64,000 bases of DNA from an uncultured beta proteobacterium (GTDB lineage: Bacteria; Pseudomonadota; Gammaproteobacteria; Burkholderiales; Burkholderiaceae_F). Both the position numbers and the translations under genes were made by a program. Positions 4,061-40,033 of this stretch are shown in pieces. Numbering within the stretch: the stretch's first letter is position 1; every line of letters begins with the position of its first letter. Below the pieces are notes generated by a model. The model was not told where the DNA came from. It made no database searches and saw only the letters and a program-made list of their open reading frames with translations. The stretch is taken from contig CAWBRQ010000003.1 of NCBI GenBank assembly GCA_963791315.1, forward strand, positions 86,339 through 150,338. Reading direction: 5' to 3'.

Positions 4061-4147
4061 GGTGACTCCTTTGGGAAAGATCCCTGCCTGTTTAACGTCG
4101 CAGGGGGCCAAAGCCGAATACCAAACTCACTCTATTGCCGTGATCAA

Positions 4148-7734: not shown

Positions 7735-7744
7735 CAGTGTCGGA

Positions 7745-9790: not shown

Positions 9791-9821
9791 TAATTGCTAA
9801 GAGCGGTTGCGCAGCACGCGC

Positions 9822-10784: not shown

Positions 10785-10880
10785 CGTGTCTCCTGTTGTA
10801 GTCAAATGTGTGCGGATTGTATGCGGCCCGCGCGCCAATGCGACGGCGATTGGCTGAGTATTAACGCGCGGTCGCTACGC

Positions 10881-11933: not shown

Positions 11934-11943
11934 TCGTGTCCTT

Positions 11944-13668: not shown

Positions 13669-13730
13669 TGAATGCTAGGAAGGTTCGCAGCGCAGCGCCC
13701 GGCGGCCGATGCGACACCGGGCGCCGTTCA

Positions 13731-15143
13731 TCAGCTCTTTAGTATCTGATCGATGCGTGCCTGTGCGTCGTCGAGTGCTTCTTTCGACTTCTTCTGTCCG
13801 ACCAGCGCGGCCTGAATCGCGGTGGCCATCGTGTCGCCAACCGCGGGCCACTGTGGAATACGCGGACGCCAGTTCACATCGGTGTCTTGCTCGAGTGATG
13901 TAAGCGCTGCCTCAACGAAGTTTGGCCCGATGTCTTTCGTCATTGCGACGAAGTCGGGTGAACGCCACAGCGATGTGCGATTTAGACCCGAACGCTTGGC
14001 TGGGCCGGCAAACTTCCACGAAGTACGCGCCTGCGTTTCTGCTGCGGCCGCCCACTGAATGAAAAGCCATGTTGCACGCTTCTGCTTTTCATCGAGCGCG
14101 GCGTTGATCGGAAAGCCCCAGTTCCATATTGACGTGCAGCGTTTTCCCGTCGGTCCCTGTGGCCAGCGTGCGAACGCCATCTTGCCGATCACCTTCGACT
14201 TCTCCGGATTCATCAGCACCGCGGCAGAAGAATGTGCGTCGATGTACGCACCAAGCGCCCCCTGAGAGAACGCGTCGGCGATATCGGGCCAGTTCCAGTT
14301 GCGCACTGCCGGCGGTGCGTACTTCGACTCGGCGTCGACATACCAGTCGAGTGCACGCACAGCCTCCGGCGAGTTGACGACGATACGATTCCCCTTGAAC
14401 CATTCACCGCCGAATTCCTTGAAGAGCGACGGATAGATGTACATGTTCTGACCGGCGCCGGCGAAACCGCGCAGCGCCATGCCATACACGCGATTGGCTG
14501 GATCGTTGATCGCCGCTGCGTTCTTGATGAACTCGTCAAGTGTGTCGGCAGCCTTCAATCCCTTTGCGTCGTATAAGTCCTTGCGAAAAACCTGCACCGT
14601 GACTTCGCCGTCGTATGGAATGCCGTACGGCTTGCCATCCATCGAATCGGCATCGCGCCACGCCTTGAAGATGTCGTCGTAGCGGAACCAGGCGGCGTCG
14701 GTGAGCTTGGCGTCATTCAAGTACCGATCAAGCGGATCGATCCATTTGTTCGCAACGTACAGCGGGTAATACATCGGATCAGTGGCGGACGTTGCGTACG
14801 TCGCCGTTTTCGATGACAGGTCAAGCATCGCCTTCTGGCGAATCTGTCCGGGAGGGACCTTCTCGAAGCGCACCTTCGCTCCGGTCAATGCTTCGAACTG
14901 TGGCGCGAGTGCGATCAGGTTGTCGAAATAGCTCGCGGGTATGACGGCCACCGTAATCTCCGCGCCTTCGGCCTGTCGCCAGTTGATCTTCGAATTTTGG
15001 TACGGCCCGAGATCGGCCGCCTGAGCGTGCGCGAAGCGCGCCACCCACGGTGCGCCCAGTACAGCAGCTGACAACGCACCGCCGGCAGCGATGGCGCGTC
15101 GCCGAGCCGTTTGCACCGGATATTTGATCGAACGTTTATTCAT
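13731..15143 (-). CDS. ABC transporter extracellular solute-binding protein (family 1, sugar type)
   Basis: 470 aa. It has a twin-arginine-like leader (TARRRAIAAGGALSAAVLG) and is the first gene of the four-gene ABC operon. Confidence 0.85.
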   Translation of the reverse strand: MNKRSIKYPVQTARRRAIAAGGALSAAVLGAPWVARFAHAQAADLGPYQNSKINWRQAEGAEITVAVIPASYFDNLIALAPQFEALTGAKVRFEKVPPGQIRQKAMLDLSSKTATYATSATDPMYYPLYVANKWIDPLDRYLNDAKLTDAAWFRYDDIFKAWRDADSMDGKPYGIPYDGEVTVQVFRKDLYDAKGLKAADTLDEFIKNAAAINDPANRVYGMALRGFAGAGQNMYIYPSLFKEFGGEWFKGNRIVVNSPEAVRALDWYVDAESKYAPPAVRNWNWPDIADAFSQGALGAYIDAHSSAAVLMNPEKSKVIGKMAFARWPQGPTGKRCTSIWNWGFPINAALDEKQKRATWLFIQWAAAAETQARTSWKFAGPAKRSGLNRTSLWRSPDFVAMTKDIGPNFVEAALTSLEQDTDVNWRPRIPQWPAVGDTMATAIQAALVGQKKSKEALDDAQARIDQILKS

Positions 15144-15161
15144 GGTGTCTCCTGTTGCTCG

Positions 15162-16704
15162 TCACTTGCTTAATGCTTCGCGATCGACTGGATCGTGCGG
15201 CTCGTCACGCGCGCTGCGTTCTCGTATCGCGGCAAACGGGCTGCAGCCTGGTGCATCGCCGGCGCCTTCTGCCTGCTGCAGCAGATATTCGGGAAACGAA
15301 CCGCCGGCGTCGGCGCAGCCAAGATCGAACAGGCGCTTGACTACATCCGGATGTTGTTGCGCGAGATTCGGTGCGTCGGGAATTGGGCGTGGTGAGTCGT
15401 GCAAGAAAGCGCCGCGGCCGTTGATTTTTGCGTTGAACCACCAGTGGTCATCGATCACCGTCATTGCGCTGCCCCAGCCGATCGTGACATGGTCGCGGAT
15501 CGCTAGCGCCATCTGCAAAGGCGGTATCCCAGAATGACACGCCGTCGATCGGCGCCGGCGGTGTGATTCCAGCGGCATCGAGCATCGTCGCGGTGATGTC
15601 GTGGTGCTGCACGAAAGCGTTGCAGGCAGTGCCGGCGCCGACCTTTTGCGGGTGGCGCACCAGCAACGGCAGCTCGTAACTCTCGGGATCGGATGGATAG
15701 CCGCGTTTACCGATGTAGCCGCGACGTTCCCACAAGCTGTGGCCATGATCGGACGTCACGATTACCAGCGCCTGATCTAGCACACCGCACGCACGCAGCT
15801 GTGCAATCAAGTGGCCGAACCAGCGATCGCACATCTGAACCAGGCCGGCGTAGTTGGCGCGCGTGCGCGTCACCAGATCTTCCGGCAGCCATGGCATTTC
15901 GGCATACGGGGAGATGACTTGCTCGCGGCCGTCGCCGTTGTCGTAGTGGCGCCGATAGTGTTCGGGCACGAACCATGGCTCGTGCGGATCGAACGATTCG
16001 ACGGTCAGAAACATGCGCTTCGCATCGACGTTCTGCTCGACCCAGCGCGCTGCTTCCTGCATCACCTGCGCGTTGAACCACTGTTCTTCGCGTACGCGCT
16101 CGCGCATGTTCAGCAAGATTCGACTCGAGAACCATGCAGCGCCAAAGCCCGGTTGCTCCAGCCCGGTCGCCTTGCCGCGCAGCTCCTGCAACTCGCGCGG
16201 CACCCAGTAGTCGATCTCCTCCTGCGTCGGCCACGGTCCGCTGCGCGCGGCATCGGCTTCCTGCCCGCGAATGAACGACCATTGATGAAAGCCCCGCCAG
16301 AAGTTTTTCGACGGTTTGAACTGGTGATACAGATCGGAAATCAGTCCGGTGCGAAAGCCGTTGATCTCGCAGATCTCGGCCATCGTGTGCTGGTTCTCCG
16401 GAATCGGACCCCAGCCCGGCGCGATGCCGACAAAGTCACCCTTGATATGACGAAAGTCTCCGTTGTGAAACGGATAGGTGCGCAAGCCCGTGTAAAGCGT
16501 GCGGCGCGCGCAAAGCGTGGGCAGCGCTTCCGGATACGCCCGATCGAAGCGCACCGACTCAGCAGCGAACGCATCGAGATTCGGCGTTTCGATCGAACCC
16601 CATGCGGCCGGCGCTTGATAACAGCCGAGCGCATCGCGCCGCAAGGTGTCGAAGATCACCAGGATGATGTGACGAACTTCTGGTTTGGGTTTGCCTGCCG
16701 CCAT
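15162..16704 (-). pseudogene. Sulfatase-like hydrolase/transferase (alkaline phosphatase superfamily), frameshifted near 15530
   Basis: The start is the ATG at 16704 (MAAGKPKPEVRHIILVIFDTLRRDALGCY; the position of the usual Cys/Ser nucleophile is Thr in DTLR). The C-terminal about 120 codons continue in the frame of ORF 15162..15746 (IRDHVTIGWGSAMTVIDDHWWFNAKINGRGAFLHD...). The upstream 143 codons of ORF 15448..17133 are Arg-rich and not credible. Confidence 0.7.
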
Positions 16705-28702: not shown

Positions 28703-28781
28703 GATTGCCTCCCCGCAGCCGGACCGAGTGTAGTTCGCGGCAGTGAAGCGCGCATGTTTACCCCTACACTTTGGGCGATCG

Positions 28782-29348
28782 ATGACCGATTCCGCGCAGC
28801 TGCAAAACGACCTTGCCCGCGTCGCCCTAGGCGATCGCGCCGCATTTGCGCGCGTTTATCAAGCCACCAGTGCGCATCTGTTTGGCGTCGCGCTTCGTAT
28901 ATTGAATCGGCGCGACGTGGCCGAGGACGTTTTGCAGGAGGCATTCGTGAGTGTCTGGCATCACGCGGGCAGTTATCAGGTCGCCAGCGGCCAGCCGATG
29001 ACATGGTTGATTTCGATTGTTCGCAACAAGGCGCTCGATGTCGTGCGCAGCGCGGCTGTGCGGCATGAGACCGAGATGCCGTTGACCGCTGAAGGCGAAG
29101 CAATCGATGTTCAGGACGATCGGCCCAGTCCTCTGCAGCTGTTGACGCAGGCCACCGATGCGCTGGCGATTCGTGGCTGCATGGAGGCGCTCGATGCTTC
29201 GCATCGGCAGTGCCTGGCGCTCGCTTACTACCAGGGCATGTCGCACTCCGAAGTGGCAACGCATATGCGCGCTCCATTGGGCAGCGTGAAGGCGTGGGTG
29301 CGGCGCGGCCTTGAACGATTGAAGAAGTGCCTGGAGAGCGGCCAGTGA
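28782..29348 (+). CDS. ECF (group IV) RNA polymerase sigma factor
   Basis: It has sigma-70 region 2 (DVLQEAFVSVWHHAGSY) and region 4 (LALAYYQGMSHSEVATHMRAPLGSVKAWVRRGLERLK). The start is placed at the ATG at 28782. Confidence 0.85.
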   Translation: MTDSAQLQNDLARVALGDRAAFARVYQATSAHLFGVALRILNRRDVAEDVLQEAFVSVWHHAGSYQVASGQPMTWLISIVRNKALDVVRSAAVRHETEMPLTAEGEAIDVQDDRPSPLQLLTQATDALAIRGCMEALDASHRQCLALAYYQGMSHSEVATHMRAPLGSVKAWVRRGLERLKKCLESGQ

Positions 29349-30082
29349 ATTACAACCGCGCCGATCTACTCGATCGCCTGGCGTCTGAGTACGTGCTGGG
29401 CACGCTGCACGGTGCTGCGCGGCGACGCTTTGACAAGCTGCTGACCGAGTCTCCGGCCGCGCGCACCGCGGTGCAGGCCTGGGAGATACGGTTGGCCGCG
29501 CTGGCCTCGTCGGTACCGTCCGTTGCGCCATCATCGCGTGTGTGGACGGCGACCGAAGCGCGGATTGCCTCGACCGCTTTGCGCCGCGGGTCGCGACCTT
29601 CCTGGTGGTCGAGCCTATGGAAGCCGGCGCTCGGCTTTGCATTGGGTGCAGCGTTGACGGTTGCACTCGTGCAGATGATGCCGGGTGCTTTTGTTTCGCT
29701 CGACGAGCTCGCGCAGCGCGAGCAGGCATTGCCGCAAAGCTACGTCGGCCTGTTGCTCGACCGCGAAAATCTGCCCACGTTGTTGATCAGCTCGACCCGG
29801 CATGGCACGCGCGTCACCGTCAAGTCGCTGCGTCCGGTCGCGGTACCAGCCGGCAAGGTCGCGCAGGTGTGGGCGCTGCCGAAAGAGGGTGCTGCATTCC
29901 CAATCGGTGTTGCCGTTCCAACCAAGCCGCCGGGCAGCACGTCATTTGAAATGAGTGCCACGTCGGAGAAGTTGCTCACCAATGTGACGCGGCTCGCGGT
30001 CTCGTTCGAAGATGCGCCGGCGCGTGCGGGTGCCACGCCCGCCGAATTCGTTCTTCTTGGCCCCTGCGTCAAGCTTTGGTAG
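29345..30082 (+). CDS. Anti-sigma factor (RskA-like)
   Basis: Its GTG start overlaps the sigma-factor stop (GTGA). The N-terminus LASEYVLGTLHGAARRRFDKLL is typical, followed by a single TM (LWKPALGFALGAALTVALV) and a periplasmic C-terminal domain. Confidence 0.75.
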   Translation: MNYNRADLLDRLASEYVLGTLHGAARRRFDKLLTESPAARTAVQAWEIRLAALASSVPSVAPSSRVWTATEARIASTALRRGSRPSWWSSLWKPALGFALGAALTVALVQMMPGAFVSLDELAQREQALPQSYVGLLLDRENLPTLLISSTRHGTRVTVKSLRPVAVPAGKVAQVWALPKEGAAFPIGVAVPTKPPGSTSFEMSATSEKLLTNVTRLAVSFEDAPARAGATPAEFVLLGPCVKLW

Positions 30083-30174
30083 AAAAACTCGGCGCGCGCT
30101 GCATCCGCTTCGCAATCCGCTGCGTATGTCTGCCAGGTGCTCGATGAGCGCCACTACTACGCAGAGGAAACCGA

Positions 30175-30588
30175 ATGAAACACAGCATGATGTTTGCCGC
30201 GATCGCGGTCGTTACCCTGGCGGTTCACGCCAACCCGACGCAAATCTCCAACGGCGTTCTGGCCAGTAAGGAAGGCAAGACGCTTTACATGTTCGACAAG
30301 GATGCGTCAGGCAAAAGCAATTGCACCGGCGGTTGTGCCGCGGCATGGCCTCCGTTCGTGGTCGCAAACGCGGCGCTGGCGGACGGCGACTTTTCGATCG
30401 TCAAGCGCGATGACGGCACATCGCAATGGGCGTTCAAGGGCATGCCGCTGTATTTCTTCGCGGGTGATGCCAAAGCGGGCGACACTAACGGCGACAACCA
30501 AGGCGGCGTGTGGCACGTGCTGCGCGGCGAGTCGAAGAAGACATCGGCCGCACCGCATACCAGCTACAGCGCGGGCTACCGCTACTAA
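30175..30588 (+). CDS. Exported lipoprotein-like protein with duplicated Yx(F/W/Y)xxD motif (COG4315 / PF03640-like)
   Basis: It has a signal peptide and two repeats, GKTLYMFDKD and GMPLYFFAGD, separated by CTGGCAAAWPP. Confidence 0.75.
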   Translation: MKHSMMFAAIAVVTLAVHANPTQISNGVLASKEGKTLYMFDKDASGKSNCTGGCAAAWPPFVVANAALADGDFSIVKRDDGTSQWAFKGMPLYFFAGDAKAGDTNGDNQGGVWHVLRGESKKTSAAPHTSYSAGYRY

Positions 30589-30600
30589 CCGGTGGCAATC

Positions 30601-30627
30601 GCGTCCGACCTGTGAGGGGTCGGACGC
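30601..30627 (+). terminator. Stem-loop downstream of the lipoprotein gene (possible terminator, no U-tract)
   Basis: GCGTCCGACC-tgtgagg-GGTCGGACGC forms a perfect 10-bp stem 13 nt after the stop codon. Confidence 0.35.
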
Positions 30628-30734
30628 GCGTCGCGCTCACTGCCCGCAAGCGATACCTTCATGGAAAGGGCCGGCTAACGCTGGTGACCGAGCGGTAAGA
30701 TGTTCGCGGACCTTCACGAACTGTGCGGATCATC

Positions 30735-31718
30735 ATGTCAGACACATTGCGTCGCTTGCTTGATGCTGCAATCGCGATCGTCTTCGCGTCGGCAACCAGC
30801 TTCGCATCGGCGCAACCGTATCCGTCGAAGCCAATCAGATTGATCGTGCCACTGGCGCCCGGAAGCACCGCCGATATCGCCTCCCGCTTTACCGCAAACG
30901 AACTCGGCAAGGCACTCGGACAGAGCGTCGTAGTCGAAAATAAAACCGGTGCGGGCGGCACCATCGCGATGGCAGAGCTCGCGCGTTCTGCTCCCGACGG
31001 CTACACCATCGGCTTCGCGTCGCAAGGCACGCTCGTATTCAATCAGGGCATCTACGCCAAGCCGGGCTACGACTCAACGAAAGACTTCGCGCCAATCGCG
31101 CTACTCGGCGGCGTGTCGAACGTGATGATCGTTCATCCGACCAACAAGGCAAGCGCGCCATCGGACGTGATTGCCATCGCCAAGGCGAAACCGGGCGAAT
31201 TGACTTTCTCGTCAGGGGGCGCCGGCACCAGTCATCACTTGTCCGGCGTTTTATTCGGGCGCGTCACCGGTACCGAGCTCGTGCACGTGCCATACAAGGG
31301 CGCACCACAAGGCGTGCTGGCGGTAATGGCGAATGAAGTGACGATGGGATTTTTCAATACGCCGACGGTCATCAGCCAAATCAAGGACGGCAAGGTCAAG
31401 GCGCTGGGAGTAACCAGCCTTGCGCGCTCACCGTTGTTGCCGAATGTGCCGACGCTCGACGAGCAAGGCGTCAAGGGATACGAGGTCAACACCTGGTTTG
31501 GATTCGTCGCACCGGCCGGTACTCCACCCGAGGTCGTTAACCGCCTCAATACCGAGCTGAACAGGATTTTCGGCAGCGCTGAAGCAAAAGAAAAGCTGGC
31601 ACCGCAAGGGTTCGATCTATCGCCGCCCATTACACCAGCGGCATTCGGAAAACTCATTGCCGACGATATGACGCGCTGGGTGCCGATCGTCAAGGCATCC
31701 GGGGCAAAGGCGGACTGA
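30735..31718 (+). CDS. Bug/TctC-family tripartite tricarboxylate transporter substrate-binding protein
   Basis: It has a signal peptide followed by QPYPSKPIRLIVPLAPGSTADI and VVENKTGAGGTIA, the Bug hallmarks. Confidence 0.85.
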   Translation: MSDTLRRLLDAAIAIVFASATSFASAQPYPSKPIRLIVPLAPGSTADIASRFTANELGKALGQSVVVENKTGAGGTIAMAELARSAPDGYTIGFASQGTLVFNQGIYAKPGYDSTKDFAPIALLGGVSNVMIVHPTNKASAPSDVIAIAKAKPGELTFSSGGAGTSHHLSGVLFGRVTGTELVHVPYKGAPQGVLAVMANEVTMGFFNTPTVISQIKDGKVKALGVTSLARSPLLPNVPTLDEQGVKGYEVNTWFGFVAPAGTPPEVVNRLNTELNRIFGSAEAKEKLAPQGFDLSPPITPAAFGKLIADDMTRWVPIVKASGAKAD

Positions 31719-31851
31719 AGCCATAGCGCAACTTGCCGCGAGCTGATTTCTGGCAGCAAATTGGAACCGCGCGAACGCCATTGAACATAGCGAATCTACT
31801 AACTGAGTCGCGATTGACATCGTGTGTTATCCGGCGCATCGTGCCTCGGCC

Positions 31852-32352
31852 ATGGACGCACGCCCGGTCTCGATAGCCCTCGTTGCAGCGACGCTAGCCG
31901 TCGCTCCGCACGCCGCAATGTCCGAAATCTACAAGTGGACCGAGGCGGACGGCGTGGTGCATTACAGCAACACGCCTCCACCGAAGTCGAAAAACGGGCG
32001 TCAGGTCGGAAATGAATCGGGCACCCTCAGCGTCGTACCCGGCATGTCGAAGGAGGAAAAGGACCGGTTGCGCGAACGCGAGGATCAGCTGCGTCTGCAG
32101 CGCCTTGAACGCGAAGTCGAGGAGCTGCGTGCCCGTGAATTGGCACGCGAACACGCTCAACCGGAGGTCATTTACACCGACGTATATGTACCGGCGTACG
32201 GGTACGGGCGACCGTTGCATAGGCGCAATACTGATGATGTGAAGCCGCGCCCGGAACAGCCGATCGCCAAACCCAGACCGCCTCAGCGAACGCCGCCTAT
32301 GGAGGATCTAAGCGCCCCTCGTTCACCCACTGGAGCCCTAAGCCGGCGCTAG
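31852..32352 (+). CDS. DUF4124 domain-containing exported protein
   Basis: It has a signal peptide followed by IYKWTEADGVVHYSNTPPP (the DUF4124 signature), a coiled-coil segment (EEKDRLREREDQLRLQRLEREVEELRARE) and a Pro-rich tail. Confidence 0.7.
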   Translation: MDARPVSIALVAATLAVAPHAAMSEIYKWTEADGVVHYSNTPPPKSKNGRQVGNESGTLSVVPGMSKEEKDRLREREDQLRLQRLEREVEELRARELAREHAQPEVIYTDVYVPAYGYGRPLHRRNTDDVKPRPEQPIAKPRPPQRTPPMEDLSAPRSPTGALSRR

Positions 32353-32395
32353 TTTGGATAGCGAGCGGTCGGGCCGCGCACCTCGCGAGGACACC

Positions 32396-32788
32396 GTGAA
32401 CAAACTTCTCTTTGCCATTGCGCTTGCAGCTCTCGCAGTACCCGTCAGCTTTGCGGGCATGTACGACCAGCCGTATGCCATCGTCGAATCAGGCGACGCA
32501 TCGGAGGTGCGGAATGAGGCGCGCCTTGCGATCAGCAAGGTGGATGGTAAGAGCACGCGCAACCCGCGTAAGAGCGATCCGATCGCGCCCGGCAAGCACA
32601 GCATCACGTTGCACTTCGAGAGCGCGCGGGGACTCTTCCGCCCTGCGTCTCTCGACGTCGAGATCGACCTGCAAGCCTGCACGCGCTACCGCATCGTGGC
32701 GAACTACGAGAATAAGACGGGAGGAGATTGGAAACCGAAGGTCTATTCCGAGTCGATCGGCGAATGCGTCAGGAAATTCAAGAAGTGA
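32396..32788 (+). CDS. Exported hypothetical protein
   Basis: It starts at a GTG with VNKLLFAIALAALAVPVSFA (signal peptide). The coding look is plausible, but no family was recognised. Confidence 0.5.
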   Translation: MNKLLFAIALAALAVPVSFAGMYDQPYAIVESGDASEVRNEARLAISKVDGKSTRNPRKSDPIAPGKHSITLHFESARGLFRPASLDVEIDLQACTRYRIVANYENKTGGDWKPKVYSESIGECVRKFKK

Positions 32789-32812
32789 GATGCAGCGCAC
32801 GCCGCTCTCAAA

Positions 32813-33022
32813 CTAAATCTCCGGCTTCGCGTCCCATTTGGGCTTGGTCTCGCGGCCCCACTTTTTTGGGTCCTCGTTGTGCATCTTCTCCATGGCCTTT
32901 GCAGTATCGGGATGCCTCTCCATTACGTGCTTGGTCATGGTCTTGACCATTTCATCCCAGGTTGGCGCTGATAGCTTTTGATCGCAAGGTCCACCAAGTT
33001 CGCGGCAGCTCATAACCTTCAT
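32813..33022 (-). CDS. DUF1059-like small protein
   Basis: MKVMSCRELGGPCDQKLSAPTWDEMVKTMTKHVMERHPD resembles the DUF1059 pattern (MK..C.D.G..C). Confidence 0.55.
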   Translation of the reverse strand: MKVMSCRELGGPCDQKLSAPTWDEMVKTMTKHVMERHPDTAKAMEKMHNEDPKKWGRETKPKWDAKPEI

Positions 33023-33175
33023 CGGAACGCTCCATTTCCCGTGAATGAGACAGCGTTGCCGCAATCGACGTGCCCAAGTACAGCCAAGTGCCAGCGCGAC
33101 TCAGTTGCCGAAAATGGCACTGGACGTGCGTCAACGTCTCGAATCTGCGGTTGCGGTTTTTCTCGGATTTGTTAG

Positions 33176-33195
33176 TACTGTAGATATATACAGTA
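33176..33195. promoter_or_regulatory. LexA (SOS) box
   Basis: TACTGTAGATATATACAGTA has CTGT-N8-ACAG and differs at one position from the E. coli-type consensus TACTGTATATATATACAGTA. It sits in a 288-bp AT-richer non-coding gap between the DUF1059 gene and the first cassette. Confidence 0.65.
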
Positions 33196-33229
33196 TTCAG
33201 CCCGAAAGCCAGTACTCATGCGGCTTGGC

Positions 33230-33305
33230 GACGAACGGGCGGTCCGTGTTAAACCGCACCCGCCACATTAAGGAGCAGAATGGTGCGGTCTAAAACACGT
33301 TAGAG
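33230..33305 (+). other. attI-like / degenerate attC region ending in a GTTAGAG core
   Basis: An imperfect inverted repeat, GTGTTAAACCGCACC (33247-33261) / GGTGCGGTCTAAAACAC (33281-33297), is immediately followed by GTTAGAG (33299-33305, GTTRRRY-type). The left part, AACGGGCGGTC, resembles the type-B attC left arm. Confidence 0.3.
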
Positions 33306-33310
33306 CGCAA

Positions 33311-33697
33311 ATGGAACGCGCCATTGAATTGGTCAACTCGGGAGTTGGGCACGTTGCTCAGTTGACTGCGCTCTTGGCGAGCCTAAAGGCGCACGACATC
33401 GCGTTGTTCGAGCATGCAATATTTAATGCTGGGTTTTGGGAGCTTTGTGCTAGTTGTGGGACGCGCTCACGATCGATGAAATTCTCGTGGGACGGACGTG
33501 AGTTCTCCCTCGATGTGAGTCGAAGCGGTGTTGGCAATTTGAGCGCTACTCCGAAGTGGCAGCATGTCGCTAACACCACGGTTGCAAATGGCGAAGGCCT
33601 TTTCGAACAATACTGTCTCGCACGAGGAGAGAATTTGCGATCTAACATGTCGTTGGAGAGCCGACGCTCTACGAGCGCGGCTCAACTCAGACGTTAG
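33311..33697 (+). CDS. Cassette 1 ORF, hypothetical protein
   Basis: 128 aa. Its 3' end runs into attC1, as is common for cassette ORFs. No family was recognised. Confidence 0.5.
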   Translation: MERAIELVNSGVGHVAQLTALLASLKAHDIALFEHAIFNAGFWELCASCGTRSRSMKFSWDGREFSLDVSRSGVGNLSATPKWQHVANTTVANGEGLFEQYCLARGENLRSNMSLESRRSTSAAQLRR

Positions 33698-33699
33698 GC
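33640..33699 (+). repeat. attC site 1 (60 bp, classical short type)
   Basis: The sequence is ATCTAAC-ATGTC-GTTGGAGAGCCG...CGGCTCAACTC-AGAC-GTTAGGC. The R''/L''/L'/R' layout closely parallels textbook short attC sites. Confidence 0.8.
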
Positions 33700-33764
33700 C
33701 CCACCGACAACCACCGAGAGTGGGGTTCCAGCTCTCCCACACCTCAAGGCGAAGGAGAATTCGA

Positions 33765-34462
33765 ATGACTCAGGTTCCGCGACACTCGTCCGCATTTGCA
33801 TTGCTACTGGCAGGGCTCCTGATTACGGCACCAACTGGAGCGCTCACGCTCAAAGCACAGAAATCTTCGCGCCGACGACTGGTAGCGGACCTGGCGTGCT
33901 TTTGATCTCCGGGGTTTCCGGAACCGCCCTATACCAAGATTTCGGTCGGGCCGTTGCCGACTTGGGTTACACGGCGATCCTGGTGAGCGGAAAGGACGTA
34001 TCGAACCAACCAGGCGAGGCAACTGAAAACTTACGGAAGATACTTGCCACAATCCGCTCGGACTCAAGAGTGAAGCCTGGAAAGATCGCGGTCGTAGGCT
34101 TCTCGCTGGGCGGTGGAGGAGCACTACTCCACGCATCAAACGAACCCGAACTTTTTTCCGCCGTGGCCGCCTACTATCCCGCTGTGACTCGTTTGCCGAG
34201 CATCGCTGATACAGCAACGCGAGTGACTGTCCCGACGCTGATACTCGCCGGAGAGAAAGACAAATTCAATAACTGCTGCCTCATCGAGTCCATCCGCGAG
34301 TTCGAGGCGGCGGCCAAGGCAGGCGGACGGCCGGTAACGGTCGTCACATATCCGGAAGCTGAACACGCATTCAACCTTAAGGTGCCAATGTTCAGGCCCG
34401 ACGATGCGGCAGACGCGTGGCAAAGAGTGCAAGAGTTCTTGGTCAAATTCCGTCCAAAGTGA
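33765..34462 (+). pseudogene. Cassette 2: exported alpha/beta hydrolase (dienelactone hydrolase family), frameshifted at an A-run
   Basis: AAGGAG precedes an ATG at 33765 that opens a signal peptide, MTQVPRHSSAFALLLAGLLITAPTGALT. The enzyme body (EIFAPTTGSGPGVLLISGVSG ... VVGFSLGGGGAL ... EHAF) is one frame over (ORF 33896..34462). Adding one A to the AAA at 33861-33863 joins the two. Confidence 0.7.
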
Positions 34463-34463
34463 G

Positions 34464-34539
34464 GCCTAACCCCTCCATCGAGCGGACGTCCCCAGGCGGC
34501 TTCGCGCCCTTGGCCCGCCGCTCACGTCGGACGTTAGGC
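34464..34539 (+). repeat. attC site 2 (type A, 76 bp)
   Basis: GCCTAACCCCTCCATCGAGCGGACGTC...CCGCCGCTCACGTCGGACGTTAGGC. The flanks are conserved with attC4-6, and the centre is self-complementary. Confidence 0.85.
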
Positions 34540-34554
34540 CGCAGGCCATTCGCC

Positions 34555-35004
34555 ATGCGACTGTGGACGCTTCAGCCGCCAAGTACCTTGACGCGCAGGG
34601 CGTGGTCACGCTTTGGCGCGAGGCGCTACTCGCCCGCGAGGTGCTTCGTGGGCGCACCTATGGTTATCGCCAGACACCCGCAATTGATGCGGTTTCGGTC
34701 TTGTGCTTCGCCTCGCTCTGCGATCGAACCGATATCTTGCGCTTGTCTACGCCGAAGCTCGCTCTCGCGGCTACGCGTTCGATCAATCCAAGCTTGGCCG
34801 CCTGGGATCCGGACAACGCATTCTCGTCGCCGACGGACAATTGCAATACGAATGGGCTTGGCTTCTGAGTAAGTTCGGCGGCGCAGTCGCTTCTGTTCAT
34901 CGTCGTCACCTCGGTGTTTCCCATCCTGTGGCGCATTGCCACTGTTTCGATCACACCGGGTCCGATTGCCAGTGCGGCAGCATGTGCATGACGCTGCAGC
35001 CTAA
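34555..35004 (+). pseudogene. Cassette 3: pyrimidine-dimer DNA glycosylase family (T4 endonuclease V-like, Pyr_excise) remnant in at least 3 frames
   Basis: MRLWTLQP (frame of ORF 34417..34872) is followed by KYLDAQGVVTLWREALLAREVLRGRTYGYR (ORF 34563..34868). Then comes HPQLMRFR (first frame again), then YLALVYAEARSRGYAFDQSK...ILVADGQLQYEWAWLLSK (ORF 34703..35131). The 3' end is uncertain. Confidence 0.65.
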
Positions 35005-35078
35005 CCGGGCGGTCAACACGGACGCCGACCGGTGGGGCTGCGCACGCGGTCGGCCGCCGGTTACCTTACTCGTTAGGC
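34999..35078 (+). repeat. attC site 3 (type B, 80 bp)
   Basis: GCCTAACCGGGCGGTCAACACGGACGCC...GCCGCCGGTTACCTTACTCGTTAGGC. Its arms are shared with attC7. Confidence 0.8.
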
Positions 35079-35139
35079 GTCACCCTCGTTCGACGGGTCA
35101 CACAGACTCAAATGAGTTCTCTTGGCGCTAGGAGACGAT

Positions 35140-35517
35140 ATGACAGCCGAGTTCTTTGAAGAGAACAATCCGGGCACACGAACATTGCCGCGCTCACTGG
35201 TGACGAAGGCAGGCGGCTTGGTATTCGTTGGCGGCCAGGTAGCTAGAGACGAAAGCGGCGATGTCATCGCAGGCGGCATTGAAGCCCATACGCGTCAAAC
35301 GATGAAAAATGTCGCCGCCGCGCTCGCATTGGCCGGTTGCAGGCTCGAGGACGTGGTGAAGACCATGGTCTGGCTCGACGACGCACGCGATTTCGATGCG
35401 TTCAATCGCACTTACAGCGAGTTCTTCCCTGGAAACAAGCCAACGCGCTCGACAATACAGGCGAAGAACATGGTCGGCACCAAGGTCGAGATCGAGGTCA
35501 TTGCCTATAAGCCATGA
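35140..35517 (+). CDS. Cassette 4: RidA/YjgF/TdcF family protein
   Basis: AGGAGA precedes the ATG at 35140. The sequence is AGGLVFVGGQVARDESGDV...TRQTMKNVAAALALAGCRLEDVVKTMVWL...PTRSTIQA...VEIEVIA. Confidence 0.85.
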   Translation: MTAEFFEENNPGTRTLPRSLVTKAGGLVFVGGQVARDESGDVIAGGIEAHTRQTMKNVAAALALAGCRLEDVVKTMVWLDDARDFDAFNRTYSEFFPGNKPTRSTIQAKNMVGTKVEIEVIAYKP

Positions 35518-35578
35518 CGCCGATGGCAATCTCGTCTTCATGCGTGTTCAAAACGTCGCGCCTACTTTGTGCGGCGAC

Positions 35579-35656
35579 GCCTAACCCTTCCATCGAGCGG
35601 ACGTCCTCCGGCAAGCTGCGCTTGCCTGCGGCCGCCGCTCATGTCAAACGTTAGAC
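35579..35656 (+). repeat. attC site 4 (type A, 78 bp)
   Basis: GCCTAACCCTTCCATCGAGCGGACGTC-CTCCGGCAAGCTGCGCTTGCCTGCGG-CCGCCGCTCATGTCAAACGTTAGAC. Confidence 0.85.
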
Positions 35657-35702
35657 GCCACCACATCCCCACACTCTGATCGTCCAGTCGAAAGGTCAGC
35701 AA

Positions 35703-36073
35703 TTGAACAATGCAACCCAAATCATCTACCCAGCGCCATGTTCGTACACGGTCGCAGACGCTAGCAAATGGTTCATCGCATCTGTGAAGCTGATACCAGA
35801 CGCGGTCGCAAGCGTATTCGACAACAGGAGCGGCTACAAGAAGCCTGGAGCCTTAAGAGTCAACTGCGACTCGGGGCTGCTCTATCGCTCTACGATCAAG
35901 AACTAGTTCAGGAGTTCTTTGCCGTGTTCCCACTCCCATCAATGTCCGAACTCCTTGAAGGGGTCCGGTCGGGTGGGCTTGATACGACGTCTGCCCAGTC
36001 TGCCATCAATGCACTCTGCACGTTCACCGAGAGGCAAACAAGAGCATTCCCGGGCACCGTGGTGAAGCCATAG
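35703..36073 (+). pseudogene. Cassette 5: hypothetical protein, apparently split between two frames near 35885-35905
   Basis: ORF 35703..35906 (MNNATQIIYPAPCSYTVADASKWFIASVKLIPD...) looks coding and stops at 35906. The second half of ORF 35768..36073 (DQELVQEFFAVFPLPSMSELLEGVRSGGLDTTSAQSAINALC...) also looks coding, but its first half is Arg-rich. Confidence 0.4.
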
Positions 36074-36191
36074 GTCTGGAATTGCGAAACGTGAATGGGC
36101 AGAACTTTGTTATGACCGAGAATGGTTGGCAGCCTATGGATTCGAACTAAGCACTTCTCAAAGTGTTCTCGACGAGCGCTTCTGCAGTGGC

Positions 36192-36269
36192 GCCTAACCT
36201 CTCCATCGAGCGGACGTGCCAAGGGCCGCTTCGCGCCCCTTGCCCCGCCGCTCATGTCGTACGTTAGGC
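36192..36269 (+). repeat. attC site 5 (type A, 78 bp)
   Basis: GCCTAACCTCTCCATCGAGCGGACGTG-CCAAGGGCCGCTTCGCGCCCCTTGCC-CCGCCGCTCATGTCGTACGTTAGGC. Confidence 0.85.
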
Positions 36270-36310
36270 GTCAGAAGTCGCAGCACTTGGCGAAGAAGCG
36301 GGGCAGCATC

Positions 36311-36808
36311 ATGCTTACTGCACTTAGGAGATTCGGTATGCGCGCTTTGCTCACTCTTCTGGCAGCAATGCTGCTCTGTCCGCTAGTGCATGCAAATGAC
36401 GCGACAAAGGTCGTCGGCACATGGAAGCTGGTGTCGTTTGTCAATGAGTTCCAGGACGGGTCAGAGGCTAAAGGCGCCTACGGGAATCGTCCTACCGGTT
36501 ACGTCATCTTTACGCCTGAGGGACGCGTGATGTTTATGGTCGAAGCGGAAGGCCGCAAAGCGCCTGAGAACGACGAGCAGCGGGCCGCAGCGTTTCGTAC
36601 CATCATCGCCTACACCGGGCTGTACAAATTTGAAGGGGACAAGTTCATTACGAAAGTCGACGTCTCTTGGAATCCGAGTTGGGTTGGGACAGAGCAAGTC
36701 CGCGACTACAAACTCGACGGTGACACCTTCAAAGTGATCTCGCCTTGGGTCATGAGCCCAAACCTAGGCAAGATGACTCGAGCCACCGTCACCTGGGAAC
36801 GAAAGTAG
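36311..36808 (+). CDS. Cassette 6: exported lipocalin-like domain protein (PF13924-like)
   Basis: It has a signal peptide (MRALLTLLAAMLLCPLVHA) followed by VVGTWKLVSFVNEFQDGSEAKGAYGNRPTGYVIFTPEGRVMFM. The upstream part of ORF 36122..36808 crosses attC5 and is rejected. Confidence 0.7.
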   Translation: MLTALRRFGMRALLTLLAAMLLCPLVHANDATKVVGTWKLVSFVNEFQDGSEAKGAYGNRPTGYVIFTPEGRVMFMVEAEGRKAPENDEQRAAAFRTIIAYTGLYKFEGDKFITKVDVSWNPSWVGTEQVRDYKLDGDTFKVISPWVMSPNLGKMTRATVTWERK

Positions 36809-36838
36809 GCGTCCTCATCCAGCCCGATCGAAGCTGAC

Positions 36839-36916
36839 GCCTAACCTCTCCATCGAGCGGACGTCCCAAAGGCCGCTTCGCGCCCTTTGGCCCGCCGCTC
36901 ATGTCGAACGTTAGGC
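36839..36916 (+). repeat. attC site 6 (type A, 78 bp)
   Basis: GCCTAACCTCTCCATCGAGCGGACGTC-CCAAAGGCCGCTTCGCGCCCTTTGG-CCCGCCGCTCATGTCGAACGTTAGGC. Confidence 0.85.
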
Positions 36917-36971
36917 GGCCCGTTAACTCGGGGCTACACCGTTGAAGCGTTCATACGTACCGGAGATCTAA

Positions 36972-37463
36972 ATGAGACTACTCACTGCCTTACTAATCTT
37001 CGCGTTGACGGTCCCACTCGGCGCTCAGCCATTACCCGATGAAATCGCGATTCGCAACATTATCGAAGACGAGAACGCTACGTGGAACAACGGCGATGCG
37101 GTTGGCTACTCGCGCCACTTCGCCGAGGCGGGCACGTTTACGAACATCCGAGGTCAATTTTTCACCGGACATGCGGCGTTCCTCAAGCAACATGAAGTGA
37201 TCTTGGAAGGCATATTCAAGAATACGACGGTGAGCCAAGACATCGTCTCACTCAAATTCATCCGGCCTGATATCGCGATCGTCGAGACGCTGACAGCGGT
37301 CGCCGGCATCGCCCAGAGCGCTCCCGGCGTAACGAGAGATGACAAAGGGCGACTCCGCACACGACTTCTGCAGGTTCTCGCTAAGGAGGACGGAGTGTGG
37401 AAGATCGTCTCATATCACAATGTAGACGTGAAGCCGGGAATCCCGGTCCCTGATCCAAGATGA
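36972..37463 (+). CDS. Cassette 7: exported SnoaL-like / DUF4440 (SgcJ/EcaC-type) protein
   Basis: It has a signal peptide followed by IRNIIEDENATWNNGDAVGYSRHFAEAGTFTNIRG ... LQVLAKEDGVWKIVSYHN, the NTF2-like fold pattern. Confidence 0.75.
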   Translation: MRLLTALLIFALTVPLGAQPLPDEIAIRNIIEDENATWNNGDAVGYSRHFAEAGTFTNIRGQFFTGHAAFLKQHEVILEGIFKNTTVSQDIVSLKFIRPDIAIVETLTAVAGIAQSAPGVTRDDKGRLRTRLLQVLAKEDGVWKIVSYHNVDVKPGIPVPDPR

Positions 37464-37484
37464 TGTTTCTTCAAACGGCGGGCC

Positions 37485-37566
37485 GCCTAACCCGGCGGTC
37501 AACGCGGACGCGCCACCGGCGTGGCTTCGCCCGCGCCGTGGTCGCCGGTTACCTTACACGTTAGAT
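37485..37566 (+). repeat. attC site 7 (type B, 82 bp)
   Basis: GCCTAACCCGGCGGTCAACGCGGACGCG...GTCGCCGGTTACCTTACACGTTAGAT. Confidence 0.8.
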
Positions 37567-37612
37567 CGCTGGCAATCTGTGCAAGTGAGCATGATGAAAG
37601 CTCAAGCGCTCA

Positions 37613-37894
37613 ATGTCGTTGATCGCTTTTCTACTTAGCTTTCCAGCTCGATCTCGTGCTTCATTGGCAGCTCGAGAAGCGTGTCAAGCACTCATAGGTA
37701 ATGAGCCGATCATTGGTACGCATGTTTGCGCTGATGAATCGAGTCGGTACGTCGTACGAGTATTTTGGGGAAGACGTAAAGGCCGATTGGAAAAACAGCC
37801 CCCATGGCAGGAGTGCTGGACATTCGCAGTCACAAAGGGCAACAATGCCGCCGAGCGAATCGATGGTGAAAAGTACAGACCCGTTATTCGATAA
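37613..37894 (+). CDS. Small hypothetical ORF to the right of the last clear attC
   Basis: 93 aa in an AT-richer region. The C-terminal two-thirds (YVVRVFWGRRKGRLEKQPPWQECWTFAVTKGNNAAERIDGEKYRP) look protein-like. No RBS or family was recognised. Confidence 0.3.
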   Translation: MSLIAFLLSFPARSRASLAAREACQALIGNEPIIGTHVCADESSRYVVRVFWGRRKGRLEKQPPWQECWTFAVTKGNNAAERIDGEKYRPVIR

Positions 37895-37979
37895 CAATCG
37901 CGCGGCTCAGCGACCCAACAAATGGCTTAGCTCAATAGTTAGACCTCGCTGCAATGCGAGTCCTAGAAGGGAATTTGCT

Positions 37980-38576
37980 ATGAAACGTCCCGTCGCCATT
38001 GTCGCGTTTGCTGCCCAGTTCCTGATGCCGTGTCTCGCGGGTGATCTCGAGGAAGGCGTGAAGTTTCAGCAGCGCAAGGACTATGCAAAGGCAGTCGTCG
38101 CCTTTGAGAGGGCCGCTGCACATGGAAGCGTCGACGCCCAACGGCAACTGGGATTCATGTACTACCACGGAGAGGGTGTCACCCAAGACAATCAGCGCGC
38201 GACCTCACTATTCGAAAGGGCTGCCGAGGCTGGCGACATCCAATCAGCCTCCAACTTGGGCATGATGTACGAGTTCGGAATGGGTGTGCGTCAAGACGAC
38301 AGTCGCGCGGCCTCGTGGTACCAGAGGGCTGCGGAATTGGGGGATCCCGGCTCGCAATTCAGAATCAGCGTGATGTACTACCAAGGCCAAGGCGTGCCTC
38401 GTGATCGTGTCGAGGCTGCGAAGTGGTGGACTATTGCGATGAGTCAAGGACCTGAATGGGCGGAAAAGTTTCGCCCGTCGGTCGCATCGGCGGAGGCCAA
38501 GCTCACACCTGAGGAAAATGCGGAAGGAAAGAGCCGGGCAGCGGAGTGGCTCAATGCGCGCAAGTCCAAGAAGTGA
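37980..38576 (+). CDS. Exported Sel1-repeat (SLR/TPR-like) protein
   Basis: The start is MKRPVAIVAFAAQFLMPCLAG. Four Sel1 repeats follow (A..W...AA..G...AQ..LG.MY..G.GV..D). The upstream part of ORF 37701..38576 is not credible. Confidence 0.8.
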   Translation: MKRPVAIVAFAAQFLMPCLAGDLEEGVKFQQRKDYAKAVVAFERAAAHGSVDAQRQLGFMYYHGEGVTQDNQRATSLFERAAEAGDIQSASNLGMMYEFGMGVRQDDSRAASWYQRAAELGDPGSQFRISVMYYQGQGVPRDRVEAAKWWTIAMSQGPEWAEKFRPSVASAEAKLTPEENAEGKSRAAEWLNARKSKK

Positions 38577-38653
38577 AAGCGCGTCTAGGACTTGGCAATA
38601 GTGTTGGATGCGACTTGGTCGGAAACAATATCGTGTATCGCCCTTCGAGCGAA

Positions 38654-40033
38654 CTACAAGCCAACCGCGTCCGTGACCAGGCGCCTTAATTCGCGGCGCA
38701 ATTTGTCACGCACCGGTGCGAGCTTGCGACTGCGATTCAGGTTGTCGAGCTCGAACGGATCGCTCTCCAGATCGTAGAGTTCGTCGAGCTCCCCCGCCTT
38801 GCCCCGGTTGACCCAATGGATGTACTTGTAGCGATCGGTACGCACCGCTTTGTATGTCATGCCCACCAGCCACGGCATCGCTTGTTCGGCCCAGTATTCA
38901 ATCAGTATCGACTTGCGCCACGCCGCACGGCGGGCGGCAAACAACGGCAGCAACGATCGGCCCTGGATCTGCGAACCCGGTTTACCTCCTGCTAGTTCGA
39001 TCAGCGTCGGCGCGAGGTCCTGGCAGATGACAAGTTCGCGTCGGCGTGAGCCTGCCTTCACCCGGCGCGGATAGCGAACCACGAACGGCGAGCGAATGCC
39101 CTCTTCGTACGCGAAACGCCGCTCGGGACCGAGTGCATGCTCGCCAAAGAAGAAGCCGTTGTCGCTGAAGAAAACAATGAACGTGTTGTCCAGCTCGCCG
39201 CTTTGCTGCAGCACATCGACGATCGCGCCGACTCCCTCATCGACCGCCGCCATCATCCTGGCGCGCAGGCGAATCTCTTCCTGCTCGCCCGATTGCAGCG
39301 CGGACAGGATCGCTTGCGACGCGGGACCTGACTTCAGCGCGAAACTCTCGGCCCACGCCGGCTTGCTCTTGATCACCTCGGCCGGCGGCAACATGTTCGG
39401 TGTGCGCGGGAACACGGCGTCGCGATACAGATCCTTATGGCGCTCCGCGACGACGTAACCCCCTTGTGCCGAGATGCGCAACGTGCCGTCAGCCGCTTGC
39501 TCGGCGTCGGGGTGCACCGCCTTGTGCGCGAAAAAAAGCGAGAACGGCTTCTTGCGCTTGCGCTTCAGAAAATCGACCGCCAGCCCGTTCATGAGGTCGG
39601 TGATGTAGCCGCTGTGCTGCACGTAGTCGCCATCGTGATTCAGCCGCGGGTCATTTAGCTTTCCGTGCCCGTCATAGCTCACCCACGTGTCGTAACCGGG
39701 CCGCGGCATGCCGTCATTGCCCATGTGCCACTTGCCGATGTGAGCGGTCTCGTACCCGAGCCGCTGCAGCTCGAGGTGGTAGTTCGGCAAGCGATGGCTC
39801 ATCGCATCGCGCGCGACGTTGTCGATGATTCCGTGCCGGCTGGCGTACTGACCGCTGACGATCGAAGCGCGATTCGGCGAACAGATCGGCGTCGTGTGAA
39901 AAGCGCGCTCGAAGATCGCGCCTTCGTGCGCAAGCCGATCGATGTGCGGCGTCTTCATGTAGGGATGGCCACCGGCGCCAAACTCGTCGTAGCGCAGATC
40001 GTCAATCAGAATCACGAGAAAATTGGGCTTCAT
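38654..40033 (-). CDS. Cys-type sulfatase (arylsulfatase / N-acetylglucosamine-6-sulfatase-like)
   Basis: MKPNFLVILIDDLRYDE ... the formylglycine motif CSPNRASIVSG ... GKWH. No N-terminal signal peptide is visible. Confidence 0.85.
   Translation of the reverse strand: MKPNFLVILIDDLRYDEFGAGGHPYMKTPHIDRLAHEGAIFERAFHTTPICSPNRASIVSGQYASRHGIIDNVARDAMSHRLPNYHLELQRLGYETAHIGKWHMGNDGMPRPGYDTWVSYDGHGKLNDPRLNHDGDYVQHSGYITDLMNGLAVDFLKRKRKKPFSLFFAHKAVHPDAEQAADGTLRISAQGGYVVAERHKDLYRDAVFPRTPNMLPPAEVIKSKPAWAESFALKSGPASQAILSALQSGEQEEIRLRARMMAAVDEGVGAIVDVLQQSGELDNTFIVFFSDNGFFFGEHALGPERRFAYEEGIRSPFVVRYPRRVKAGSRRRELVICQDLAPTLIELAGGKPGSQIQGRSLLPLFAARRAAWRKSILIEYWAEQAMPWLVGMTYKAVRTDRYKYIHWVNRGKAGELDELYDLESDPFELDNLNRSRKLAPVRDKLRRELRRLVTDAVGL

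Follow-up and report, generated by a model that had tools for sequence, protein, structure and literature searches.

A chromosomal attC array with a putative attI site and a predicted LexA box, probably left by an integron that lost its integrase gene

The 64-kb stretch of DNA analyzed here (64,000 nt of contig CAWBRQ010000003.1, from an uncultured betaproteobacterium; hereafter, the window) carries seven integron attC sites in a row and no integron-integrase gene (intI). We believe, with a probability of roughly 0.85 and on the strength of sequence comparison, that this region is what is left of a sedentary chromosomal integron belonging to a class-1-like group from soil and freshwater betaproteobacteria, from which intI has been lost. 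Such arrays belong to a known category, the cluster of attC sites lacking integron-integrase (CALIN), defined by at least two attC sites and no intI nearby (Cury et al. 2016, IntegronFinder, PMC4889954); we are equally confident that the array is a CALIN and that it arose through loss of intI. An initial annotation of the window had called it an integrase-less integron. The array does lack an integrase in the window, although what was described already has a name. What had been overlooked is the segment at 33147–33305, which is a relic of the integron platform and shows the origin of the integrase-less state. The less common part of the case is that a retained attI/LexA module makes this origin readable.

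The platform relic and the missing integrase gene

The relic (159 nt, plus strand) is homologous to the region between intI and attI. Nucleotides 33152–33307 are 83% identical to contig L127 and 80% identical to contig L129, both of which bear intI. A four-way alignment shows the relic to be colinear with the class 1 intI1–attI1 region, with locus L073 (intI intact) and with locus L105. As in the class 1 platform, and with the same spacing, the elements follow one another in the order start-codon region, LexA box, DR2, DR1, L box and R box GTTAG. At ∼33163–33165, this strand reads CTC in place of CAT, the former start codon of intI; where integrase-bearing sequences read TTTTCAT, the window has TTTTTCTC.

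A LexA (SOS) box is predicted at 33176–33195 (TACTGTAGATATATACAGTA). It has the form CTGT-N8-ACAG, the LexA motif of beta- and gammaproteobacteria (PMC3108266), and is the sole perfect instance of it in the 64 kb, where 0.31 matches would be expected by chance at two or fewer mismatches. Its position is the same as in class 1 PintI1, L073, L127 and L129.

The putative attI (33248–33305, plus strand) is recognized by homology to attI1 and to the attI sites of the intI-bearing L073, L127 and L129; the attI1 reference sequence was confirmed in at least 5000 plasmid records. Within it, all on the plus strand, are a DR2-like repeat (GTTAAACCGCA, 33248–33258; pattern GTTAnnCCGCA), a DR1-like repeat (ATTAAGGAGCAG, 33267–33278), an L box (TCTAAAAC, 33289–33296) and an R box (GTTAGAG, 33299–33305), with 2 nt between the L and R boxes versus 3 in class 1. 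The sequence GCGGTCTAAAACAC|GTTAGAG sits 121 nt beyond the LexA box, and crossover would be expected between G33299 and T33300. Among 10 related contigs, identity collapses to 0.27, a random value, right after GTTAG, where the differing first cassettes start. This is the behavior expected of an attI crossover point, and by its homology and position 33248–33305 is probably the attI upstream of the first cassette. Homology of the relic, the attI and the LexA box together suggest that the array is the attI-proximal part of an integron with intI removed.

The position and strand expected for intI are instead held by a DUF1059-family gene (32813–33022, minus strand; 69 aa, beginning MKVMSC; Pfam PF06348, 22.7 bits against a cut-off of 21.1), as the initial annotation had it. 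This gene lies ∼140 nt downstream of the relic intI promoter/LexA region. The LexA-controlled promoter relic now seems to point at the DUF1059 gene and may drive it.

The earlier statement that no tyrosine recombinase is encoded in the 64 kb also holds. Using IntI1 and eight relatives as tblastn queries, we obtained nothing better than E ∼0.2; the IntI1 query is 100% identical to the annotated intI1 of at least 5000 plasmids. A profile hidden Markov model of the nine IntI proteins, run against 771 six-frame open reading frames (ORFs) of the window, gave a best E of 0.26, compared to 1e-17 to 1e-51 for control proteins of 32–34% identity. Hence, no intI lies within at least 26 kb on either side of the array.

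Several observations weigh against loss of intI from this locus as the explanation. No intI remnant was detected in the ∼125 nt between the relic and the DUF1059 gene, so the deletion is read from homology rather than seen as a pseudogene. Nor were remnants detected in the ∼260 nt left of the relic in nine related contigs that also lack intI; the best tblastn score for a remnant, over the whole window and these nine contigs, was 23.9 bits, inside the range of shuffled controls (20.8–25.4). Lenient local alignment of nucleotides returned noise at ∼55% identity and was discarded. A consensus scan of 33065–33300 found no sigma-70-like promoter facing the cassettes. In class 1 integrons the cassette promoter Pc lies within intI1, the gene deleted in the window. 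Finally, all seven attC sites are still well formed, which is compatible with either recent loss or continued use.

An alternative is that intI persists elsewhere on the chromosome, the integron having been split at about codon 4 by a rearrangement. Here, an inversion or the insertion of a DUF1059/DUF4124 block would have parted intI from attI, placing intI >30 kb away. Rearrangement is one of the listed origins of CALINs, about half of which occur in replicons that encode IntI (PMC4889954), and the window reaches only 33 kb on the left side and 26 kb on the right. However, the breakpoint falls at the same nucleotides in about eight other contigs with different flanks, which is unexpected for a private rearrangement, and the 64 kb contain no intI fragment. 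We consider a split integron unlikely.

Loss of intI, the origin we favor, is one of four proposed for CALINs, and 95% of the CALINs surveyed have no intI pseudogene nearby (PMC4889954). The same 2016 survey counted 279 CALINs, with a mean of 5 sites and few resistance genes, and found heterogeneous attC arrays to be almost always small. The window array resembles these in being small (7 sites versus a mean of 5), in its heterogeneous attC sites, in its lack of resistance genes and in its cargo, which is mostly small enzymes or proteins of no family. It differs in keeping a recognizable attI and a LexA-regulated intI promoter region, so that loss of intI would be directly readable. IntegronFinder annotates attI for classes 1–3 only and would miss the attI of the window.

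CALINs outnumber complete integrons in genomes and most are of unclear origin; here, the route through loss of intI can apparently be read from the sequence because the attI and the SOS-regulated promoter region were retained. A search for orphan attI/LexA modules, which current tools skip outside classes 1–3, could sort CALINs by origin. In a full-text literature search, we found no paper combining CALIN, attI and LexA.

Integrase inactivation is reported to be common in soil and freshwater lineages (PMC3108266; bioRxiv 10.1101/2025.06.18.660453). Like the decayed chromosomal integrons of Xanthomonas and other bacteria of soil and freshwater, the window has a sedentary array at a fixed chromosomal site and an inactivated integrase. 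In Xanthomonas, however, intI mostly persists as a pseudogene and LexA control is absent, whereas in the window intI appears cleanly deleted and the LexA box is perfect. In contrast to class 1 integrons, the window has no intI, Tn402, 3′-conserved segment or resistance cassettes, and its array is chromosomal, between housekeeping genes.

Structure and distribution of the attC sites

We scanned both strands of all 64 kb for RYYYAAC and GTTRRRY separated by 50–145 nt. Seven of the eight matches form the array, with the coordinates, end motifs and single orientation originally described. All seven lie on the plus strand; left ends are GCCTAAC (six sites) or ATCTAAC (one site), and right ends are GTTAGGC, GTTAGAC or GTTAGAT. 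The eighth pair, at 3493–3608 (GCCTAAC...GTTAGAC, 116 nt), is a chance match: it sits inside a coding ORF, shows no fold (z −0.45) and is negative with the covariance model described next.

This model (R1; 28 pairs) was built from the seven window sites and run unfiltered over the 64 kb. It scored them at 48–98 bits on the plus strand versus 10–34 bits on the minus strand, and the next best match in the window reached 15 bits (E 0.07). By both motif scan and covariance model, then, there is no attC site elsewhere in the 64 kb. An Rfam scan of the window gave no matches, which is uninformative either way because Rfam apparently has no attC family. Start-to-start spacings of 840, 539, 578, 613, 647 and 646 nt are those of cassettes.

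The sites fall into two sequence families plus one separate site, as had been described. Family 1 consists of site 2 (34464–34539, 76 nt, 82 bits), site 4 (35579–35656, 78 nt, 90 bits), site 5 (36192–36269, 78 nt, 94.5 bits) and site 6 (36839–36916, 78 nt, 97.7 bits). Family 2 consists of site 3 (34999–35078, 80 nt) and site 7, the last attC (37485–37566, 82 nt), each scoring 67 bits. Site 1 (33640–33699, 60 nt, ATCTAAC...GTTAGGC) stands apart, with 48 bits.

When the bottom strands are folded as single-stranded DNA, a 7-bp R-box stem is followed by an internal loop of 5 + 6 nt and then by an L-box stem with unpaired bases on its 3′ arm. Fold z-scores of the bottom strands range from −4.4 to −7.7 for sites 1, 4, 5 and 6 (−4.39, −5.0, −7.65 and −6.9, respectively) and are weaker, −1.2 to −1.9, for sites 2 (−1.23), 3 and 7. 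The family-1 top strand, GCCTAAC-CTCTC-CAT[C]GAGCGG[A]CG, yields extrahelical G16 and T23 on the bottom strand, separated by a 6-bp stem, as in site 4. The family-2 top strand, GGT[C]AAC[A]CGG[A]CG, yields extrahelical G16, T20 and T24, as in site 3. Site 1 is a variant in which a 3-nt bulge replaces G16 and is followed by a 6-bp stem and an extrahelical T. In all seven sites, R″ and the complement of R′ differ by 0–2 mismatches, as they should when the final 6 nt of R′ come with the following cassette.

Published attC criteria comprise a 5–6 nt unpaired spacer on each arm, a length of 57–141 nt, G16, T23/24, an optional base 20 and the 6-bp rule (PMC5027507). With spacers of 5 and 6 nt and lengths of 60–82 nt, the window sites have both published geometries. 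Covariation, which the initial annotation had cited in favor of a fold, is evident among 147 distinct related sites: 92.2% of cells are paired, and two-sided changes occur in 23 of the 28 pairs. There were 450 compensatory cells, compared to 133 ± 8 in shuffles (0 of 500 shuffles reached the observed value), and slid controls were 21–46% paired. One caveat here is that the 147-site alignment was fitted to the R1 model itself. Judged by these predicted structures, the seven elements are attC sites by structural definition.

To see where related sites occur, we scanned ∼186,000 species genomes with the exact pattern of the family-1 left arm. It was found at no fewer than 119 genome loci (at least 119); among the matches listed, most are from Burkholderiales (Rhizobacter, Caldimonas, Pelomonas, Piscinibacter and Ideonella) and some from other phyla. 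R1 finds ∼450 sites in those loci, in co-oriented arrays. Nine of the loci (L017, L021, L023, L033, L061, L071, L073, L114 and L117) encode a full-length IntI by tblastn, 54–72% identical to IntI1, which is a further likeness to class 1. In all nine, IntI is at the expected end and on the expected strand relative to the family-1 attC sites, that is, in the canonical orientation. Six further family-1 loci contain IntI fragments (tblastn), and the proteins of L073, L129 and L021 score above the NCBIfam integron-integrase cut-offs (TIGR02249/NF011946).

R1, although built from window sites only, also detects attC sites of clinical cassettes: those of aac(6′)-Ib4 (65.6 bits), aac(6′)-IIc (52 bits) and aadA5 (42 bits), with E from 4e-18 to 1e-10 and on the correct strand, in three class 1 integrons (L124–L126; L123, an IS26-truncated integron, was left out). 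The aac(6′)-Ib4 attC (GCCTAACCCTTCCATCGAGGGGGACGTCC...CCGCCCCTCATGTCAAACGTTAGAT) is essentially that of window family 1, and family 2 resembles the aac(6′)-IIc attC.

These data bear on the alternative that the repeats are palindromes of the repetitive extragenic palindromic (REP) or bacterial interspersed mosaic element (BIME) type, or that the cassettes entered at a secondary (attG) site instead of forming an array at attI. The repeats do share some properties with REP elements, being intergenic, GC-rich, imperfectly palindromic and 60–82 nt long. Yet they are clustered and co-oriented, score far higher on the plus strand (48–98 bits) than on the minus strand (10–34 bits) and show an asymmetry of extrahelical bases that is specific to attC. 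Moreover, other genomes have this family in linkage with intI, and clinical attC sites match it. Dispersal through the genome had been named as what would betray REP elements; the window has no copy outside the array, and elsewhere the sites form co-oriented arrays at the at least 119 loci, canonically placed beside intI wherever intI is present. Within the window and ∼130 related loci, the REP/BIME reading is refuted. Insertion at a secondary site is countered by the recognizable attI before the first cassette. Together, we regard these two options as highly improbable. A covariance-model check, also proposed at the outset, thus gave strong, strand-specific matches in the array alone and reached class 1 attC sites as well.

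Contrary to the earlier view, a mixed array is not unusual. Related arrays routinely mix attC sites of 57–129 nt, and heterogeneous arrays are typically small (PMC4889954). In contrast, the superintegron of Vibrio cholerae has >100 homogeneous attC sites of the V. cholerae repeat (VCR) type, an active IntIA and many toxin–antitoxin cassettes, none of which are present in the window. The two are alike in their extrahelical bases G16/T20/T24 (window family 2) and in a LexA-regulated platform.

The attC of the clinical aac(6′)-Ib (aacA4) cassette, at 4617–4688 of L126 (plasmid NZ_CP010351.1), has arms nearly identical to those of sites 2, 4, 5 and 6. Family-1 attC sites are very common in chromosomal arrays of environmental Burkholderiales (at least 119 loci), which hints at the taxonomic source of the aac(6′)-Ib cassette. 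The similarity between a very common environmental Burkholderiales attC and that of a clinical cassette bears on the origins of resistance cassettes.

Integrase-less platforms at other loci and possible cassette turnover

A metagenome scan with the attI core, which required 22 exact core bases, returned ten further contigs (L127–L136). In L127 and L129, an intact intI starts directly beside the LexA box. The other eight have no intI, and neither L105 nor the window has one. In all intI-less contigs, homology to L129 stops at nt 699–707 of L129, whose intI ATG occupies 693–695; the break is thus at about codon 4. Most of them share CTGCGG(T)TTTTC[C/T]C instead of CTGCGCTTTTCAT. The outer left flanks vary and include DUF1059, a LivF ABC ATPase, an altronate-dehydratase-like gene, an FAD oxidoreductase, a glyoxalase and others, so that the intI-less junction recurs in about eight genomic contexts. 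In pairwise tests, left arms are only partly homologous, with z of 5–11 among L105, L130 and the L128 type and z of 3 for the window versus L134. The recurrent junction would be explained by one old deletion with later spread or by a process preferring this site, and we do not choose between them.

The L128-type platforms have no LexA box. A common hairpin-containing stretch (…CCGCTTTCGGCCAAAAGCGGTC…) occurs 55–110 nt left of the junction in L128 (6986–7058), L131, L135, L105 (1423–1435) and L130, and the flanks of these platforms diverge beyond the CCGCTTTCGGCCAAAAGCGGTC stretch. A hairpin motif seen in some left arms, CGGCCA..AGCGG, was set aside, as it also matches unrelated places (L001, L089).

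Another strain provides a view of the same locus. In L137 (ENA ERZ25039464; 1–6790 compared with window 32783–37690), window segments 32783–34546 and 36241–37690 are matched at 94.3% and 94.6%, respectively. These parts contain the DUF1059 gene, the same intI-less junction and cassettes 1–2 and 6–7. Between them, the window has cassettes 3–5, whereas L137 has 3.6 kb of other cassettes. Ahead of cassette 6, L137 carries an unrelated long attC, and identity with the window resumes exactly at G|TTAGGC. This is the signature of integrase-mediated rather than homologous recombination. In L138, homology to cassette 7 begins at the predicted cassette boundary, which is indirect evidence of recombination at G|TT within R′. 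Comparison with L137 therefore suggests turnover of cassettes by an integrase supplied in trans: the shared junction suggests that the deletion is older than the split between the two strains, in which case an integrase would have acted in trans afterwards. The LexA box of L137 is altered (ACAG to ACCG) and its attI GTT lacks the G; both may be long-read errors.

Without intI, the array would be unable to rearrange itself. Its attC bottom strands could still fold, and would be substrates for an integron integrase from elsewhere in the genome or from a mobile element. Such an external integrase could excise cassettes and perhaps insert them at attI.

These observations raise the question of whether the platform is a relic at all. 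It might instead be a satellite integron, one of a set of working intI-less platforms in which selection maintains attI, and usually the LexA box, and which exchange cassettes through an integrase acting in trans. Its members would form a lineage of soil Burkholderiales cut at about codon 4, mostly with a common junction, in at least eight chromosomal contexts and with entirely different sets of cassettes. In favor of this, eight of the ten attI contigs, L105 and the window lack intI and lose homology at about codon 4, and most carry the same junction variant, yet their outer left flanks differ. The DR1-like and DR2-like elements are 0.86 and 0.81 identical among intI-less members, versus 0.54 for the spacer, and the first cassette differs in every member. 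L137 adds the same junction and a flank at 94% together with other middle cassettes and a G|TTAGGC junction beyond the reach of homologous recombination. However, conservation of attI is partly forced by the 22 exact core bases that the scan required. The module is only ∼157 nt long, and its intI-bearing and intI-less versions are not clearly separated by overall identity. A deleted allele could also spread by homologous recombination between strains with different arrays. Signs of erosion point the other way as well: damage to the LexA box and attI GTT of L137, loss of the LexA box in the L128 type, and the decay, in the window, of site 2 and part of the cargo. For the source genome, no integrase that could act in trans is known. 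We therefore treat selected, working platforms as a tentative alternative, and an integron that has simply lost intI as the better explanation. If the recurrent junction and the cassette differences between strains do reflect integrases acting in trans, intI-less arrays would not be fossils but would take an active part in the cassette pool.

A further environmental contig, L139 (282 kb), encodes a 49-aa N-terminal intI fragment at 3920–4066, followed by two ABC-binding-protein genes. Its cassette array (6838–16492) includes homologues of window cassettes 3 and 7 plus a Beta-lactamase-family gene. From its sequence, L139 appears to be another decayed integron.

Cassettes and genomic setting

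Each attC site had been said to follow a single small plus-strand ORF. This is only roughly so: there is a frameshift in cassette 2, only a frameshifted remnant in cassette 3 and no family match in cassettes 1 and 5, and no attC follows the last gene. The functional assignments of the initial annotation (an alpha/beta hydrolase, a pyrimidine-dimer glycosylase fragment, RidA, a lipocalin-like and a SnoaL-like protein) were all borne out by Pfam. The cargo is mostly small-enzyme-like or without family, and the array has no resistance genes.

All cassettes read on the plus strand. Cassette 1 (33300–33693) contains an ORF of 128 aa at 33311–33697 that matches no family and whose stop codon lies inside attC site 1. 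Cassette 2 (33694–34533) encodes an alpha/beta hydrolase of the dienelactone-hydrolase family (Pfam DLH, 5.5e-22) with its signal peptide (33766–33905) and body (33896–34462) in different frames; the frameshift is evident from an intact 232-aa homologue in L137, which is colinear across the frame change. Cassette 3 (34534–35072) holds the remnant of a pyrimidine-dimer DNA glycosylase, matched by Pfam Pyr_excise (1.1e-6) over 40 residues only. Reading of its frames indicates multiple frameshifts, and the array of L139 contains a stretch 69% identical to it. Cassette 4 (35073–35650) carries a RidA/YjgF gene (35140–35517; Pfam Ribonuc_L-PSP, 2.3e-26). Cassette 5 (35651–36263) has no convincing gene, only ORFs of 67 and 101 aa with no family match. 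Exported proteins are predicted in cassette 6 (36264–36910; Lipocalin_5 protein at 36338–36808, Pfam 1.6e-26) and cassette 7 (36911–37560; DUF4440/SnoaL-like protein at 36972–37463, Pfam). Cassette 7 also occurs in L137, L138 and L139, at 86–94% identity and with other neighbors; the L138 homology spans window 36909–37485, starting at the cassette boundary. For the other cassette proteins of the window, homologues in 122 loci amount to distant RidA and Sel1 matches only.

Part of the cargo seems to be decaying, given the frameshift in cassette 2, the remnant in cassette 3, the geneless cassette 5 and the degraded stem of site 2. The halves of the terminal stem of that site pair poorly, whereas the stem of its L137 counterpart is intact. 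Such decay would accompany the loss of intI and a Pc that could not be located.

Beyond the last attC lies a terminal segment without an attC site (37561–38657, plus strand), with a 93-aa ORF of no family and a Sel1-repeat lipoprotein gene (37980–38576; Pfam Sel1, 7e-32). A degenerate eighth attC after the Sel1 gene was sought at 38572–38660, with no R1 match and no hairpin. The sequence just after site 7, ACACGTTAGATCGC (37556–37569), shows 93% complementarity with GCGATCTAACATGT (33637–33650), the R″ flank of site 1, and also resembles the attI junction ACACGTTAGAGCGC. As far as the sequence goes, the segment may once have been part of a cassette with a site-1-type attC, as the analysis suggests.

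The array belongs to a 6.9-kb variable segment (31720–38657) flanked by two convergent genes, encoding a TctC (Bug) protein (gene ending at 31718) and a sulfatase (gene ending at 38654). This segment comprises a DUF4124 gene, a 144-aa ORF, the DUF1059 gene, the relic, the seven cassettes and the terminal Sel1 gene, and its GC content is ∼5 points lower than that of the flanks (0.55–0.57 versus 0.61–0.63). The sulfatase (38654–40033) has 91–93%-identical homologues in contigs of uncultured Burkholderiales/Casimicrobiaceae-like bacteria. A comparison of synteny had been proposed for this interval, and three contigs (L120, L121 and L122) prove syntenic over 19–50 kb, at 75–84% nucleotide identity, while missing 31720–38657; they have no attC matches. 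In these, the TctC gene directly neighbors the convergent sulfatase gene, with gaps of ∼229 nt, ∼400 nt (with a Pirin_C fragment) and ∼40 nt, respectively. From this comparison, the whole segment is evidently an insertion or variable islet that separates two conserved genes in convergent orientation.

This empty intergenic site itself varies among the relatives. In L120, the 229-nt stretch at the site (11377–11605) opens with what, judged by eye, is a SnoaL/DUF4440-like N-terminus (MSPHEQAIRDLVDQWRRA...). In L121, an 81-aa Pirin_C fragment is found at 9412–9657. No attC was detected at the intergenic site of either contig. Both stretches may be what is left of previous cargo at this hotspot.

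A second small indel lies near the integron islet. Window nucleotides 28739–30809 (∼2.1 kb), between a CorA-like 556-aa gene and the TctC gene, have no counterpart in L120 or L121 and include an ORF with an anti-sigma-factor RskA_C domain (29327–30082). Lastly, the metagenome-assembled genome that contains the empty site of L120 also contains a co-oriented attC array at a contig end (L103, JBBQQC010000020.1, 368–4222), indicating that close relatives carry arrays at other loci.

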